Part shown: piece by piece, positions 1 to 8,930 of the stretch
How positions within the stretch are numbered: position 1 is the stretch's first letter
Layout: every line of letters begins with the position of its first letter
IMG/VR virus record: IMGVR_UViG_2660238318_000012
DNA length: 16,061 nt
Direction: 5' to 3' (one strand)
Origin: a virus
Taxonomy: Duplodnaviria; Heunggongvirae; Uroviricota; Caudoviricetes
The notes under the pieces: model-generated
Databases searched by the model: none
What the model saw: the letters and a program-made list of their open reading frames with translations, nothing else
Told to the model about the DNA's origin: nothing
Position numbers and translations under genes: made by a program

Positions 1-1461
1 ATGAAAAAATTACTGCGTCTTTTTTTCCCGCTCTCGCTGCGGGTACGTTTTCTGTTGGCAACGGCAGCGGTAGTACTGGTGCTTTCGCTTGCCTACGGAA
101 TGGTCGCGCTGATCGGTTATAGCGTCAGTTTCGATAAAACTACGTTTCGGCTGTTACGTGGCGAGAGCAATCTGTTCTATACCCTTGCGCAGTGGGAAAA
201 CAATAAGTTGCATGTCGAGTTACCCGAAAATATCGACAAGCAAAGCCCCACCATGACGCTAATTTATGATGAGAACGGGCAGCTTTTATGGGCGCAACGT
301 GACGTGCCCTGGCTGATGAAAATGATCCAGCCTGACTGGCTGAAATCGAATGGTTTTCATGAAATTGAAGCGGATGTTAACGATACCAGCCTCTTGCTGA
401 GTGGAGATCATTCGATACAGCAACAGTTGCAGGAAGTGCGGGAAGATGATGACGACGCGGAGATGACCCACTCGGTGGCGGTAAACGTCTACCCGGCAAC
501 ATCGCGGATGCCAAAATTAACCATTGTGGTGGTGGATACCATTCCGGTGGAGCTAAAAAGTTCCTATATGGTCTGGAGCTGGTTTATCTATGTGCTCTCA
601 GCCAATCTGCTGTTAGTGATCCCGCTGCTGTGGGTCGCCGCCTGGTGGAGTTTACGCCCCATCGAAGCCCTGGCAAAAGAAGTCCGCGAACTGGAAGAAC
701 ATAACCGCGAATTGCTCAATCCAGCCACAACGCGAGAACTGACCAGTCTGGTACGAAACCTGAACCGATTGTTAAAAAGTGAACGCGAACGTTACGACAA
801 ATACCGTACGACGCTCACCGACCTGACCCATAGTCTGAAAACGCCACTGGCGGTGCTGCAAAGTACGCTGCGTTCTCTGCGTAGTGAAAAGATGAGCGTC
901 AGTGATGCTGAGCCGGTAATGCTGGAGCAAATCAGCCGCATTTCACAGCAAATTGGCTACTACCTGCATCGTGCCAGTATGCGCGGCGGGACATTGCTCA
1001 GCCGCGAGCTGCATCCGGTCGCCCCACTGCTGGACAATCTCACCTCAGCGCTGAACAAAGTGTATCAACGCAAAGGGGTCAATATCTCTCTCGATATTTC
1101 GCCAGAGATCAGCTTTGTCGGTGAGCAGAACGATTTTGTCGAGGTGATGGGCAACGTGCTGGATAATGCCTGTAAATATTGCCTCGAGTTTGTCGAAATT
1201 TCTGCAAGGCAAACCGACGAGCATCTCTATATTGTGGTCGAGGATGATGGCCCCGGTATTCCATTAAGCAAGCGAGAGGTCATTTTCGACCGTGGTCAAC
1301 GGGTTGATACTTTACGCCCTGGGCAAGGTGTAGGGCTGGCGGTAGCCCGCGAAATCACCGAGCAATATGAGGGTAAAATCGTCGCCGGAGAGAGCATGCT
1401 GGGCGGTGCGCGGATGGAGGTGATTTTTGGTCGCCAGCATTCTGCGCCGAAAGATGAATAA
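1..1461 (+). CDS. phoQ: Sensor histidine kinase PhoQ of the PhoPQ two-component system, complete 486 aa
   Basis: Full-length ORF with N-terminal transmembrane segment, periplasmic acidic patch ([15 protein letters not shown]), HAMP region, H-box ([12 protein letters not shown]) and ATPase G-boxes ([16 protein letters not shown]). Sequence recognised as E. coli PhoQ from memory; no search run. Confidence 0.97.
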
Positions 1462-1579
1462 ATATGTCCTTTTACCACTACATCAAGTCATTGATTCGAT
1501 CAAACAATTTTCATTGAAAAAGTGCCAAAAATCGCAAATTGACTACACCATTAACTACACCGTTCGGTGCACTGTATGA

Positions 1580-1605
1580 AACAACGTGGAACAAATAGAC
1601 ACAAG
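1580..1605 (+). repeat. Phased 10-bp AACAA repeat array (site A) at island left end; shares 15-mer AACAACGTGGAACAA with site B
   Basis: AACAA at 1580, 1590 and CACAA at 1600, exactly 10 bp apart; the 15-mer at 1580-1594 is identical to 9056-9070. Confidence 0.45.
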
Positions 1606-1973
1606 AAATATACAGGCGGGTAATCTTTCCAGGGGGAAGCGCACCAATTCATGAGGGGCGTTAATGTCGATATGGGGATCCCCATAACGGGGCTACCGGA
1701 TTTTTTTTCCGGTTAACCTTTAATCAGGCTGGTGGGTTTTACATACCCTTGATCACCGTAATGATGATCCAGATGTGCACCTTTTCCACCAATGGCGGAA
1801 AAGCTCCAACCGTAACGATGATCGCTATGGTTGCCTCGATGGTCTGCGTGGTCATTATGACCGTTCAGCCAGTGACCTTAATCAGAATTTTTCGCTAAAA
1901 AATGACGTTGGCCACGTCATCCGGAAAGCACAAAATCACGTCGATTTTTAATGAACGGTTAAACCGTCTTTTT

Positions 1974-2552: not shown

Positions 2553-4214
2553 TTACACCCCGCTAAATTCTTCCAGTTTCTGGCGGTGGCTGTCGCTTAT
2601 ATCAAAAGCAAAATCCTCATGCTCTGCCTGGAATGTACCAAACGCCATCAGCGCCGCTACGCTCGGGTCTATCTTGTTCGGTGATTTTTTCTTGTTCGGC
2701 TTGATATTGGCGTTCGCGTCACTCTGCATCACGACGTTACTCATCGACCAGGACAACACCGGATCGCCACGATGCACAATCACCCTGCGGTTAACAAAAA
2801 CTTCGAACGATTTCGCCGCCGGACTGAATCTGAGGTAGGTTTGCGGGAACGGCTCCACCTCAAAACCAGCCCCCTGTAATTGCGTCCTGAGATGCGTGGC
2901 GTTCCACGTATCAAAGCCCACCAGCCTGATATTAAATTTCTCCGCATCCTGCATGATGTCATCTCTGATCCGGTCGTAATCAATGCAGTCACCTGGCGTT
3001 GTGCGTATCCAGCCCGCTTTAGCCCACTGGCGATAGACAGCGCGGTTTTTATTGGCGGGGTTCTGTAGCTGGAACTCCGGCAGATAATGACGGGAAATCA
3101 GCATAATGGTTTTACCGACCGGAAAGGCATAGCATACGCTGGAAATATCGCTGGTTGATGATAAGTCCAGCCCCGCGTAACACTCCTGACCGTGTAAATC
3201 TTCCTCCGTGAACGTTCCGGCACACTCAGCCCATGCACCATTACCCATCCACGGGGTAGTCCCCTGACACCAGATATTAAATCGCTTTGTCATCATCTCC
3301 ACCCACTGCGACGGAATACCCCGCGCTTTCTGGATGGTTGAGGCCAGTTTTTCACGATCCACGGAAACATCAATATTAGGGTTCGCCTTTATCCACATCG
3401 CCGGATCATCAACCTCGTTTTCGTCGTCCAGTTCGTAAATCAGTACAAAAATTGAATCGTTAACCTCTTCGCCGTCCAGGATCTGGCAGCAATAATCATA
3501 GTGCTGTTTACAGGCTGAAACGACGTTACTGCCCGATGTGGTAATGGCAAATAACAGCCCTTCGGGACGTGCGCCCATCCCCAGCTCAAGCGCGGAATAA
3601 ACGCCGTTATCGGGGTGTAGGTGGTATTCGTCCACGATGGAAAGACTGGGGTTTGTCCCCTCGATGGTTGCCGCTTTTGCTGCCAGCGGCTTTAACAGGC
3701 TGTTGCTTTTCGGGTGTATCACCTTATGCGCCTGAATATTCACCCGCCTGCGTAACGGTCGGGATAAAAGGCACATCTGACGCGCATTATCAAACACGAT
3801 CCGCGCCTGGTCACGGCTCACCGCTGCGGTGTAGATATCCTGCTGACCGTTCTCCATAATCAGAAACCAGTTAGCCAGAATCGCGGCGGTCGTGGATTTC
3901 GCATTTTTGCGCGGCACTTCGATAAAGGCGCTCGTGTATTTGCGCCGTCCGGTGGCCTTAACCTTAAAGCCGAGGATGCACGCAAAGGCGAACTGCTGCC
4001 ACGGCTCCAGCTCAATGGGTCTGCCACGCATCGGTCCTTTTACGTGCGGGCACACCCTGGAAAAGGCAATAAACCGCTCCACAACCTCACGATCGAACGT
4101 GTAAAGGGGGCTTTTAAGGTCCGAAAAGTACCGTTTAACAGCCTGTTTTAACCGTTTACAGGCCGGAATTTTGCCCGTTTTTACGTCTTCTGCGTACTTA
4201 TTCCAGGCGGTCAA
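2553..4214 (-). CDS. terL: Terminase large subunit, 553 aa
   Basis: Walker A-like VPRKNAKST near the N-terminus, ATPase then nuclease domain layout typical of Terminase_1 family; 5' end overlaps terS by 17 nt. Confidence 0.95.
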   Translation of the reverse strand: MTAWNKYAEDVKTGKIPACKRLKQAVKRYFSDLKSPLYTFDREVVERFIAFSRVCPHVKGPMRGRPIELEPWQQFAFACILGFKVKATGRRKYTSAFIEVPRKNAKSTTAAILANWFLIMENGQQDIYTAAVSRDQARIVFDNARQMCLLSRPLRRRVNIQAHKVIHPKSNSLLKPLAAKAATIEGTNPSLSIVDEYHLHPDNGVYSALELGMGARPEGLLFAITTSGSNVVSACKQHYDYCCQILDGEEVNDSIFVLIYELDDENEVDDPAMWIKANPNIDVSVDREKLASTIQKARGIPSQWVEMMTKRFNIWCQGTTPWMGNGAWAECAGTFTEEDLHGQECYAGLDLSSTSDISSVCYAFPVGKTIMLISRHYLPEFQLQNPANKNRAVYRQWAKAGWIRTTPGDCIDYDRIRDDIMQDAEKFNIRLVGFDTWNATHLRTQLQGAGFEVEPFPQTYLRFSPAAKSFEVFVNRRVIVHRGDPVLSWSMSNVVMQSDANANIKPNKKKSPNKIDPSVAALMAFGTFQAEHEDFAFDISDSHRQKLEEFSGV

Positions 4215-4509
4215 GCTCGTCCTCTTCTTCTGTTTCCGGTGGATTTTTACGGCGGCTTATCGGGTCAAAACCGAGCAAGGAGGCCATTTTTATCATCACT
4301 CTTTCAGCGTCGGATTTTGCGCTTAATGCGGGGTTTCTGCTCTCGCCGCCCTGACTGTTAACAATGCTGAACCCGCGCGCCGCAAGGTCTGCAACGGCTT
4401 TCCGGTAAATGGAGTAGTTGACGCAATACAGTTCCAGATTGCTCCAGTCGGCGGGGGTCAGGTCTCCCCGTTCCGCAAGCTGCCGCGATTTTTCCCGCCA
4501 CTGCTTCAC
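4198..4509 (-). CDS. terS: Terminase small subunit, P27 family; annotated GTG start probably truncated by a frameshift (true start likely ATG near 4570)
   Basis: Core resembles P27-family TerS. The conserved N-terminal motif KPDPAYLDDIAVKQW lies in frame upstream of the GTG but is cut by TGA; an ATG with GAGG RBS sits in the -1 frame across a G6 tract. Confidence 0.8.
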   Translation of the reverse strand: MKQWREKSRQLAERGDLTPADWSNLELYCVNYSIYRKAVADLAARGFSIVNSQGGESRNPALSAKSDAERVMIKMASLLGFDPISRRKNPPETEEEDELDRLE

Positions 4510-4745
4510 GGCGATATCATCCAGGTAGGCGGGGTCGGGTTTGTCCTGAAAACGCCCCCCACCCCGTCATACAGCCTCATCAGCGATTGCGGAAACATTC
4601 CATAACCTCGCGGTCACGGTCGGTTAATCGCTTCGCTGTGATGCGTTCTGCGCGTCCTGACGCTTTATCTTTATGCCCTGTTTCCTGTGTCTTCCATGCG
4701 TCACGCTGCCTTATAAGTCCACGGATAAGGCGGTTTTGTTCCCGC

Positions 4746-5482: not shown

Positions 5483-5817
5483 TTTTCCGCGCCCTCACGA
5501 CAAAGAATTTCAAGGCGTGTCCTGGCGGCATCCGGCAGCGGCTGCCCGATGATATTCAGTACACGCCCCGCCAGCGGCCCCGTACTGACCTTTATCCGGC
5601 TGGTGGCGTTGATGTCCTTCCGGTACCGTATCCAGATCCTTACGGTACCAATCGCCAGCTCTGCGCCCGATGAAATGGCCTCCTTGCTGCTGACCATGTT
5701 CACGCTTGCCCAGAGTGTGTGACCGTCCTCCCACGTTTCGAGTATTTCGCCGGTTATATCCCTGGTCTGTTTCAGGGTCTGAATCGTTATCCTGTCACGC
5801 AGTCGCCCTATGTTCAT
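5479..5817 (-). CDS. Head closure / head-tail adaptor protein, 112 aa from the ATGA-overlap start; longest ORF starts at 5859
   Basis: MNIGRLRDRITIQ ... RIWIRYRKDI motif typical of phage head closure proteins; ATG at 5815-5817 overlaps portal stop. Confidence 0.75.
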   Translation of the reverse strand: MNIGRLRDRITIQTLKQTRDITGEILETWEDGHTLWASVNMVSSKEAISSGAELAIGTVRIWIRYRKDINATSRIKVSTGPLAGRVLNIIGQPLPDAARTRLEILCREGAEK

Positions 5818-7069
5818 TCCGGTTTTTCTCCCTCGCTGATTTTTACTTCCTGTTTCCATGCCTGGCTGAACTCATCACCACCATCACGCGGTGACAGCCC
5901 TTCACGTTCGCGGGCTTCGTTCGGACACATAACGTCGGATTTTATGCCGCGCTCATAGGTGGCAAAGCGTTCGCCAGGTGTGGCCCGTAACAGGTCCGCG
6001 CTGTCAAACTCCACCTGATACCGGATACCAGGTACAGGCGAGGCCACCAGCAAGGCGTTTTTTATCTGCTGCTCAAAGTTCGCCAGCCACGGGCGCATCG
6101 TCATGNNNNNNNNNNNNNNNNNNNNNNNNNNNNNNNNNNNNNNNNNNNNNNNNNNNNNNNNNNNNNNNNNNNNNNNNNNNNNNNNNNNNNNNTGTTGCTG
6201 TATTCCTGCAAAAAAATCGGCGAGACGTTGAACATTCGGGCGATGTCTTCAATGGTGAAGCGACGGGAGGCCAGCCATTCGGCATCCTGATTACTCATGC
6301 CCAGCTGCTGATAGCTCATCCCCCCTTCAAGGATGGGCGTTTTTCCGGCGTTTCTGGCCCCTTTGTAGCGTTCCAGTGCGGCTAATGCCTGTTTGCCCCT
6401 CACGCCGTCCAGCCATTCGCCTGACGTGATAACCCCTGCCGCCATCATGCCATCACGCATCACGCTCGCGCCGTGGCGTTGTTGGGCCAGCCCAAGCCCC
6501 AGCGATTCGCGGCAGATGGTTACAGGTGAGCGCCCCATAAAACCGTCATCCGTGGAGTAACGAAGGTGGAGAACCTCCCACGGTAAATAGTTGCGGATGT
6601 TTCCGGTGTAGGCGTCAGTGATGCAGTAGCGCCAGTTATGATCACCTGTCTGCTCCACGTTCACCGACTGCGGCGGGTAAGGATGTAAAGCCGCCGGAAA
6701 ACCATCACGCCCCCACTGAATAACCGCATAAGCATTACCACTTAACAGGCAGTAGCGGATCATCATTCGCTTAAACTGGTAGGGTGTCTGCCACGCGTTC
6801 GGGCGCTCGTTGAGGATGTGATCGACCGGATGAGAATCAAGCCATTCGCGGGCCTCCTTCCCCTTCTCATTGCGTACCAGGTACAGGTAACACGGCATGG
6901 TAGCCACCGCGTCAGAGATGACCGTGACGGCGTTCATGACGGCGGGGAGTGATTCCGCTGTCCCAGATGATACGTACTCACCCGCCCCCGTGTTCGATGT
7001 GCCGGCCAGCGCCATAAATTCATCAAGCGTCATGCTGCGCTGCTCTTTTTTTCGTCTGAAAGGCCACAT
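5814..7069 (-). CDS. Portal protein, HK97 family, interrupted by an assembly gap (N run 6106-6192)
   Basis: N-terminal 322-aa ORF (6101-7069) and C-terminal 96-aa ORF (5814-6104) both read as portal sequence; frame across the gap is undefined. Confidence 0.85.
6106..6192. other. Assembly gap, 87 N
   Basis: Run of n characters directly visible in the sequence. Confidence 0.99.
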
Positions 7070-7070
7070 A

Positions 7071-7643
7071 TCACACCCCCGCTAAATCCGCCCACCAGCG
7101 GCGATTATCCGCACGCGGCATTTTTTCGGGGTGCTGCTCATACAGGGAACGGCGGGCCAGCTCCACGCCGGAATCGGGGTAAGCCGGTACCGATGTAACG
7201 GTAATTTCGTACAGTTCCGCCACCAGCACGGTGCGCACGCATGGATCTGTTGTGGTATCCCATACATCCTTACGGGAGCGAAAGCCAAAGCTCATCCCCG
7301 AGATGTCCCCACGCTTAACCAGTTCGATAACGTCGCGCCCTGTACTGGTATCCGGTGGGGTCAGTTCAAAGCGTAACCCTGTTTCGTCCTCTTCCAGTTT
7401 CAGCGTGCCGGAACGGGTGCGCCCCAGTAACATGCTGTGGTCATGCTCATACAGGCCGCGAACGTCATTACCCGCCGCAAGCCATTCAGTAAACGCCCCC
7501 CGCTGGAATTTTTCGTAAAACTCACCCCATAACAGTTCTGAAAGCTTATCCCAGCGAACAACGTAGCCCGTCAGCGTACCGGCTCCGCTGGTGGTGATTT
7601 CCGATGACCGGATTTCCATACTCTTCATAATTTTTTCACCCAT
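7071..7643 (-). CDS. Prohead maturation protease, HK97 family, 190 aa
   Basis: GLYEHD motif and overall HK97-protease-like layout; positioned between capsid and portal genes. Confidence 0.9.
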   Translation of the reverse strand: MGEKIMKSMEIRSSEITTSGAGTLTGYVVRWDKLSELLWGEFYEKFQRGAFTEWLAAGNDVRGLYEHDHSMLLGRTRSGTLKLEEDETGLRFELTPPDTSTGRDVIELVKRGDISGMSFGFRSRKDVWDTTTDPCVRTVLVAELYEITVTSVPAYPDSGVELARRSLYEQHPEKMPRADNRRWWADLAGV

Positions 7644-7682: not shown

Positions 7683-8012
7683 TTAATCGTCGTCTTCCGG
7701 CAGTGCCAGAATCTTGATCGCGTTCGAATCCACCACGCCACCGCCTAAATATTTTTGCGTGAAAATTTTGATGAATCCTGGTTCTGTCAGGTTGTCCGGT
7801 CTGGTGCGAACACCTGTTTCGTGATCAACAATGTAGTAACCGCGTTTGAAGTCACCCAGGGCAATAACGTTATCAGGCATAAACTCCAGATATTCGACCG
7901 GAAGGCCCAGCAACGTATCAGGATCACCCGCCTGTAAACGGTCGCGCCAGATATAATCACCGTTCGCGTTCTTCACCTTCTGAAGTTTTGCCGCCGTCGT
8001 GGAGTTAACCAC
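7683..8012 (-). CDS. Major capsid protein, C-terminal 109-aa fragment; in frame with and directly after a TGA that ends the upstream fragment
   Basis: Contains HK97-fold C-terminal consensus (ALGDFKRGYYIVDHETGVRTRP ... GGGVVDSNAIKILAL); the ORF track places it in the same frame as 8013-8888, starting immediately after its stop. Confidence 0.8.
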   Translation of the reverse strand: MVNSTTAAKLQKVKNANGDYIWRDRLQAGDPDTLLGLPVEYLEFMPDNVIALGDFKRGYYIVDHETGVRTRPDNLTEPGFIKIFTQKYLGGGVVDSNAIKILALPEDDD

Positions 8013-8840
8013 TCAGACCGCGTTTTTGCGGTATTTTTTACGTAATGCAAATTTCAGGTCGATCAGCGGGTCCGCAGATGTCCACGCCAGAGATTCGGAA
8101 GGTTTAATTACCTGCAACGTACCAAAATCACGCTCTTTGTCGTTCTTCTCTGCACGGGGTACGGATAAAAAACCTTTTGCTTTTTTGTCACCGTCGCCCA
8201 CAACCAGATCGCTTTCTTCGGTTTCCGTGAAGGTGTCGCCAATCTCACCCGTCAGCCATGAAAGGATGTCCACATCGGAAAAATCCACGATTTCCTGTGT
8301 GGTGCGCGGGTACGCATAGACCGGATACAGCTTAATGCTCACCTCGTTAATCTGCGGGGTGCTGGTCTGTTCGCGTGCCTTACCCTCTTCACCGTGGTTA
8401 ACGGTCGCACCGCCAGCGGAAACAAGCTGCTTAAACTCGTTGCTGCTGATTTTCTTCACGGTACAGATGCGACGCATGGTGGATTCATCCGCCAGCATTC
8501 GCATGATTTCGGTGTTCAGTTCAGGGATAACGGTATAACCACCATCAGCGGGAACGCCTGTACTTAATGCGCGGGTTTCACCGGTCAGAATGTAGTTACG
8601 TAGTTCTGCGGGGTCAGTGGTCTGGCTGCTTTTACCTGGCTTGCTGCGCTCTTCGTCTGCAATGGCTTCAAGGCGGGAAATGTCTTTATCGAGGGATTCA
8701 GCTTTAGCGCGTAATTCGTCAAATTTTGCGCCCTCAGCATCGTTAAGACTGCGGTTTTCTTTTTCAGCGTTCTCCAGCATGTCGCGCATCTGATTTTTAA
8801 TGGCGGTTTTCTGCTGGCGTAATTCGATTATTCTCTGCAT
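8013..8840 (-). CDS. Major capsid protein, HK97 fold, N-terminal fragment with coiled-coil delta/scaffold domain; ends at in-frame TGA. Longest ORF begins at GTG 8888
   Basis: ATG at 8838-8840 has AGGA RBS; coiled-coil N-terminus (MQRIIELRQQKTAIKNQMRDMLENAEKENRSL ...) then capsid body. Fragments sum to about 384 aa, the size of an HK97-type capsid protein. Confidence 0.8.
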   Translation of the reverse strand: MQRIIELRQQKTAIKNQMRDMLENAEKENRSLNDAEGAKFDELRAKAESLDKDISRLEAIADEERSKPGKSSQTTDPAELRNYILTGETRALSTGVPADGGYTVIPELNTEIMRMLADESTMRRICTVKKISSNEFKQLVSAGGATVNHGEEGKAREQTSTPQINEVSIKLYPVYAYPRTTQEIVDFSDVDILSWLTGEIGDTFTETEESDLVVGDGDKKAKGFLSVPRAEKNDKERDFGTLQVIKPSESLAWTSADPLIDLKFALRKKYRKNAV

Positions 8841-8930
8841 AAAAAAAGTCCTGGGGTTAAGTAAGGAACTCCAGGACGCGGCAAACACTCAACCGTTTTT
8901 CATAAGGAAATCAGTAATCGCACCGATCGT

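Follow-up and report, generated by a model that had tools for sequence, protein, structure and literature searches.

A lineage-inherited nonsense mutation, W276*, very probably makes the major capsid gene a pseudogene in a decaying Shigella flexneri cf-PICI

Results

The island beside phoQ

The DNA analysed here (the window) is the whole 16,061-nucleotide stretch of IMG/VR record IMGVR_UViG_2660238318_000012. At its left end is phoQ (1..1461, plus strand) and at its right end an integrase gene, and it is 99.8-100% identical over its full length to S. flexneri chromosomes such as CP004057.1. The island in this segment of the S. flexneri chromosome is a capsid-forming phage-inducible chromosomal island (cf-PICI) inserted between roxA and phoQ. 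On the minus strand, alpA is followed by several small open reading frames (ORFs), a DUF4222 gene and a D5_N/DUF5906 primase gene, and then by the packaging genes in the order capsid, S78 prohead protease, portal, head closure, connector, HNH, terS and terL. The integrase (409 aa), AlpA (62 aa) and primase (582 aa) make up a left arm of the PICI type. The packaging operon has the gene order given in the cf-PICI paper, no tail genes were found in the gene content of the island, and the att repeats are 14.5 kb apart, where about 15 kb is expected. These repeats are imperfect; the one at the phoQ side was mapped from another locus, L005, and its partner is located upstream of int, just outside the window on the right. 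The features used below are as follows.

14832..16061, minus strand: tyrosine integrase, 409 aa, protein 100% identical to the integrase of Sakai Sp7
9507..9668, minus strand: deletion-scar ORF ssb'-'perC, 53 aa, in which ssb codons 1-25 continue in frame into the C-terminal part of perC/pchE
8841..8888, minus strand: upstream stretch of the mechanical capsid ORF, from GTG 8888 to just before ATG 8840; 5' leader, non-coding in the annotated orthologues
8013..8840, minus strand: capsid N-terminal fragment with the premature TGA, codons 1-275; delta/scaffold domain at about 1-92, followed by the N-arm, the E-loop and the beginning of the P and A domains
8013..8015, minus strand: premature opal codon TGA, equal to codon 276; TGG (Trp) in the orthologues
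7683..8012, minus strand: capsid C-terminal fragment, codons 277-385 and TAA; GTG directly after the TGA; carries E379A
7071..7643, minus strand: prohead protease (Peptidase_S78), 190 aa, intact
5817..7069, minus strand: portal gene, whose only interruption is a gap of 87 N; intact (403 aa) in near-identical records
4198..4533, minus strand: terS remnant, residues 8-118 of 118; the remaining copy of the 7-bp repeat CCCCGCC is at 4528-4534
1537..1611, strand not applicable: att-type direct repeat at the phoQ-side end of the island

The protease, head closure, connector, HNH, terL and int genes are intact, as is the portal gene in near-identical records. The ORF list of the window shows the portal gene as if frameshifted, in pieces of 322 aa and 96 aa. 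What looks like a break at 6101-6104 comes from the 87 N at 6106-6192, an assembly or scaffold gap of arbitrary length where near-identical S. flexneri records have 43 nt, and a broken portal gene was ruled out.

An in-frame TGA divides the capsid gene

The HK97-type major capsid gene is 1158 nt long on the minus strand, from ATG 8840 to TAA 7683, and is interrupted by an in-frame TGA at 8015-8013. Both the ORF list and direct translation place the mechanical ORFs of 291 aa (8013..8888) and 109 aa (7683..8012) in the same frame on the minus strand with this TGA as their sole separator, and the translation around the stop reads ...K-N-A-V-*-V-V-N-S-T-T.... The annotated orthologues have a CDS of 1158 nt whose ATG corresponds to 8840 of the window. 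The length of 291 aa therefore results from counting from the upstream GTG at 8888; the actual N-terminal fragment has 275 aa, and the stop is codon 276. A run of T at 8841-8850, just upstream of the ATG, counts seven T in the window and in strain 20.1 and eight in Sakai and 14EC001, a length polymorphism of the leader that has no effect on the reading frame.

The Pfam profile PF05065 (Phage_capsid, 280 positions, score cut-off 24.2 bits) is split over the two pieces. The N-terminal fragment matches positions 1-166 with 102.6 bits and the C-terminal fragment positions 169-278 with 84.7 bits, while an intact orthologue matches positions 1-279 with 208 bits. Since one domain is shared between two ORFs, this is a single gene cut in two and not a chance abutment. 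The HK97 fold (N-arm, E-loop, P-domain and A-domain) is thus not spanned by any one polypeptide, the cut being at about profile position 167. A preliminary description of this DNA had proposed a capsid gene in two same-frame pieces separated by an in-frame TGA. The ORF list, the translation and the split domain bear out the interruption; the length of 291 aa given there for the first piece has to be corrected to 275 aa, with the start at ATG 8840.

The stop replaces a conserved tryptophan

We aligned the gene with intact homologues. In all three aligned intact E. coli orthologues (14EC001, 20.1 and ECs_1590 of O157 Sakai), the codon at the position of the TGA is TGG, in a sequence context that is otherwise identical. 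The preliminary description had named Trp as an example of what the TGA might replace, and the alignment shows that it is indeed Trp. One G>A transition in the coding strand, at plus-strand base 8013, accounts for the change and gives W276*. The intact orthologous protein is identical to PDB chain 9GYI_B. The window gene aligns with it over all 385 codons and differs by P2Q, T117A, T155A, W276*, E379A and Q382E.

In E. coli, a 61-mer around the codon in its TGG form had an exact match in 330 of 355 complete genomes, and three variants of it that were sampled were ordinary SNPs inside intact CDSs. The TGA 61-mer of the window had no exact match in 349 complete E. coli genomes. A search of 1.84 billion representative proteins with the N-terminal fragment returned 2806 relatives. 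When 102 diverse full-length homologues were aligned together with the Sakai reference, the W276 column was aromatic in 99 of the 103 sequences (W in 65, F in 33, Y in 1), and the homologues ran a median of 111 residues beyond this column. Capsid genes that naturally end or are naturally split at this position, which would have made the stop an ordinary gene end, were thus looked for and ruled out.

The same alignments bear on the idea that the UGA is recoded by design, as selenocysteine or as a reassigned codon. Apart from the presence of an in-frame UGA, nothing speaks for it. The stop is not conserved in orthologues, which have TGG in an otherwise identical context (the 330 genomes above), and diverse homologues have W or F in this column. 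A SECIS-like hairpin was not found: the fold of the 76 nt that start at the stop is on a par with shuffled sequences (z = -0.54). An Rfam scan of the window gave no match either. Neighbouring genes end normally, so the host uses the standard code. We consider the probability of such recoding to be practically nil.

Two kinds of fragment were also seen in E. coli. A 109-aa fragment with the same GTG start and an E. coli-type tail (ELPQDDD) occurs on 17 E. coli contigs (protein P0018), and a 275-aa N-terminal fragment with P2 occurs on 2 short E. coli contigs (protein P0183). These are a hint that a stop at or near the same codon may have arisen independently in some E. coli.

The TGA allele is real and recurs in S. 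flexneri

The codon was read directly in 17 distinct S. flexneri-type public records, and it was TGA in all of them. We take these records to include AE014073.1 (strain 2457T), CP001383.1, CP004056.1 and CP004057.1. In the assembly collection, 3556 blocks contain the exact 275-aa product. Each of the two exact products, of 275 aa and 109 aa, occurs on at least 1000 contigs, with Shigella flexneri as the source name for both. In several records the locus has no called protein, consistent with annotation as a pseudogene. Public annotation already shows the lesion, in some entries as a pair of 'phage capsid family' fragments and in others as an uncalled pseudogene.

An error of sequencing or assembly in the source record, which the preliminary description had listed among its options, would be conceivable for an assembly of draft quality with a scaffold gap of 87 N. 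However, the same TGA is present in 17 independent public records, several of them finished chromosomes of 4.5-4.7 Mb, and the exact fragments recur on the contigs counted above. These data refute the option, and we regard an error as extremely improbable. The comparison of alleles in related strains thus separates TGA in every S. flexneri-type record read from TGG in the intact E. coli orthologues. A stop that is premature with respect to intact orthologues recurs in independent genomes of one lineage.

The stop apparently preceded other changes in the capsid gene

Exact-sequence look-ups allowed the alleles of the capsid gene to be ordered. An intact allele with Q2, W276 and E379 is present in S. 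flexneri (360 contigs), and the corresponding intact allele with P2 is present in E. coli. The stop is thus polymorphic within S. flexneri, and on these alleles it arose inside the species or just before it. A 109-aa C-terminal fragment that still has E379 was found in one record, S. flexneri 2850-71, and the combination of W276 with A379 was in no record. Because the intact Q2/W276/E379 allele and the E379 fragment are both on record and W276/A379 is absent, the stop apparently came first and E379A arose after it. The simplest order would be P2Q, then W276*, then E379A in the part that is no longer translated. Shigella is known for the accumulation of pseudogenes; the reported divergence among S. 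flexneri lineages is about 0.09%, with many shared and private pseudogenes.

Other lesions accompany the stop

The capsid gene is not the only damaged packaging gene, for terS has lost its start codon and leader. It lacks a segment of 97-98 nt that the E. coli islands have between a pair of CCCCGCC copies, and the sequence at the deletion junction is ACAAACCCGACCCCGCCTACCTGGAT. With this segment went the ATG, codons 1-7 and the upstream leader. The remnant keeps the Terminase_4 domain. Neither an ATG nor a Shine-Dalgarno sequence is left in it, and the earliest mechanical start, a GTG, comes 15 codons into the remnant. Cos phages of the HK97 type have their cos site immediately before terS; by analogy, the deletion of the leader may also have removed the packaging site of the island.

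A third lesion is the ssb'-'perC fusion. The TGA, the terS deletion and the fusion occur together in all 17 distinct S. flexneri-type records, and none of the three was found in any locus with an intact capsid gene. In this comparison the loci with an intact capsid gene are E. coli-type and those with the TGA are S. flexneri-type. Look-ups by way of the 53-aa, protease and 101-aa products encoded nearby gave loci of these two kinds only. Some S. flexneri records carry additional breaks (int W116*, terS E100*, a terL frameshift and a primase indel). Within S. flexneri, polymorphism of the island is mostly nonsynonymous, which is weakly consistent with relaxed constraint and drift.

Two further features lie near the scar. 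A 101-aa ORF at 9678-9983, just upstream of the 53-aa scar in the reading direction of the island, matches no Pfam family, and the E. coli islands compared lack a counterpart of it. In addition, a terminator-like direct repeat of 23 nt (CAGCCGGAGCAATCCGGCTTTTT) flanks a segment of about 363 nt that contains a 74-aa ORF (9123-9462 in the window; repeats at 9356-9378 and 9719-9741 in L005). The segment is present in the window and deleted in several S. flexneri records, for example CP004057.1, CP001383.1 and CP004056.1, so that by its sequence it is a deletion polymorphism between repeats.

Part of the mature capsid subunit is lost

The cryo-EM model 9GYI depicts the T=4 capsid of EcCIEDL933, the prototype cf-PICI; this capsid consists of 240 subunits with the HK97 fold (bioRxiv 10.1101/2025.02.11.637232). 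The same preprint gives an RMSD near 1 Å between this capsid protein and that of HK97, and reports cleavage of the orthologue at residue 93 and a mature protein of 32.6 kDa (bioRxiv 10.1101/2025.02.11.637232). We calculated masses of 32.65 kDa for residues 93-385 and 26.1 kDa for residues 93-327. The mature range printed in section 13 of the preprint, 93-327, appears to be a typographical slip given the mass of 32.6 kDa (bioRxiv 10.1101/2025.02.11.637232). Since residues 93-385 fit this mass, the C-terminal 110 residues lost in the window belong to the mature shell subunit, and W276* removes 110 of its 293 residues.

Translation of the window gene would end after 275 residues. An intact S78 prohead protease gene adjoins the capsid gene, and cleavage of the delta domain is predicted here by analogy with the orthologue. 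After removal of that domain the truncated product would be a fragment of 183 residues without 110 of the 293 mature residues, which therefore cannot be a complete capsid subunit.

Readthrough of the UGA is an unlikely rescue

UGA is the leakiest of the stop codons, and a near-cognate tRNA inserts Trp at it, so that, against the pseudogene reading, some full-length protein may be made. We therefore considered whether leaky readthrough by Trp-tRNA-Trp could yield a full-length capsid protein with Trp276, and with it a few capsids and transfer at a reduced level. In E. coli K-12 reporters, in which Trp-tRNA-Trp competes with RF2, readthrough of UGA is about 2% at 37°C and about 4% at 25°C. Trp is also the residue that the ancestral allele encoded; the product of readthrough would differ from that allele only by E379A, and the 109 codons downstream of the TGA are still open. 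On the other hand, K-12 has a weak RF2 variant, so that readthrough is probably lower in Shigella than in K-12, and UGA followed by G is not the leakiest context. A T=4 shell is built from 240 subunits, and truncated subunits that still bear the delta domain, in 25- to 50-fold excess, would probably poison its assembly. The window has none of the marks of a programmed event: the 76 nt from the stop lack a stimulatory structure, the Rfam scan was empty, and the stop is a derived allele that relatives do not share. In addition, terS lacks its start codon in the same genomes, and in the prototype the packaging-module genes are each needed for efficient transfer. Low-level readthrough, the third option of the preliminary description, may thus occur as occasional insertion of Trp (about 2-4% in K-12). 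Nothing suggests that it is programmed or that it would be sufficient for transfer on its own, and we regard this rescue as very unlikely.

A further alternative is that one or both fragments have been retained for a new function, either as a delta-domain decoy against HK97-like phages or as a two-piece capsid protein made by reinitiation at the GTG. The abundance of the TGA allele in S. flexneri, the position of the GTG directly after the TGA and the open state of most other island genes are compatible with such a role. Clonal inheritance nevertheless explains the abundance of the allele, a Shine-Dalgarno sequence is absent before the GTG, and the break falls inside a single PF05065 domain. 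Moreover, the C-terminal fragment gained a nonsynonymous change after the stop, and other genes of the island break sporadically by lineage, with mostly nonsynonymous polymorphism, as under drift. A new function of this kind is in our view highly unlikely. We likewise give little credence to the bolder proposal that the opal allele throttles the satellite through a few percent of Trp276 readthrough, or that the 275-aa fragment is kept for interference with HK97-like phages; this, too, we hold to be very unlikely.

Discussion

The capsid gene of this S. flexneri cf-PICI is very probably a pseudogene, W276*, that has been inherited in the lineage within a decaying island. The mutation, its ancestry and distribution, the lesions that accompany it and the loss of part of the capsid domain are shown by the sequences. 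In the history that we propose, a single G>A transition turned Trp276 (TGG) into an opal stop, and the TGA allele was inherited vertically through much of S. flexneri. The start codon and leader of terS were lost by a repeat-mediated deletion, a second packaging lesion.

What these lesions would do to the island can be judged from EcCIEDL933. Single mutants of its packaging module abolish transfer and satellite-sized packaged DNA and leave replication unaffected; the exception is the mutant of gene 1792, which still transfers at a severely reduced level. The capsid gene of this prototype is needed for transfer. By analogy with these mutants, we infer that W276* and the deletion in terS have cost the packaging genes their function, with loss of capsid assembly and of transfer. 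Most likely, the island can neither build T=4 capsids of its own nor transfer. The preliminary description had raised a nonsense mutation that inactivates the satellite capsid as one option, and the TGG of the orthologues, the cf-PICI gene content and the need for the capsid in the prototype all support it. As most other genes of the island are intact and the att repeats are present, the decay is recent or incomplete.

The cf-PICI at roxA/phoQ in common S. flexneri lineages is therefore very probably a non-transmissible remnant, which matters when 'functional' satellites are counted in Shigella. For experimental use of the island, the capsid codon and terS would both need repair. The locus may also serve as an example of the order of mutations in a decaying mobile element, with a stop followed by drift in the untranslated part. 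Beyond annotation, the significance is small.

The closest known system is EcCIEDL933/Sakai Sp7, which shares with the island in the window the roxA/phoQ site, the genes next to the capsid gene and their order. Its capsid protein (gene 1786, equal to ECs_1590 of Sakai Sp7, PDB 9GYI) is collinear with that of the window over 385 codons, with 5 amino acid differences and the stop. In contrast to EcCIEDL933/Sp7, the island in the window has an opal stop in place of W276, lacks the terS start and is missing most of ssb and perC. At the protein level, identity to Sakai Sp7 is about 96-99% for the packaging genes and 100% for the integrase. The primase module is of another type, with a 582-aa D5_N/DUF5906 primase in the window compared with a 710-aa protein in Sakai. 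Such mosaicism is usual among cf-PICIs that have an attachment site in common.

As in HK97 gp5 (PF05065), there is a delta domain with an adjacent S78 protease gene, and both fragments jointly cover the profile (1-166 and 169-278 of 280). Unlike in gp5, the fold is cut mid-way, and neither fragment is a complete HK97-fold subunit. The lesions also resemble those of Shigella pseudogenes, which likewise show lineage-inherited point nonsense mutations, small deletions and sporadic further breaks, although here the lesion is in a gene of a mobile element and not in a metabolic gene. Conserved S. flexneri pseudogenes in the Shigella study cited are mostly interrupted by IS elements, whereas the capsid lesion is a point mutation. 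A last comparison is the read-through coat protein A1 of phage Qbeta, in which UGA is decoded by tRNA-Trp at a few percent to give an extended protein; there the stop is conserved and both products are needed. The stop in the capsid gene, in contrast, is derived and absent from relatives, and its short product has no known role.
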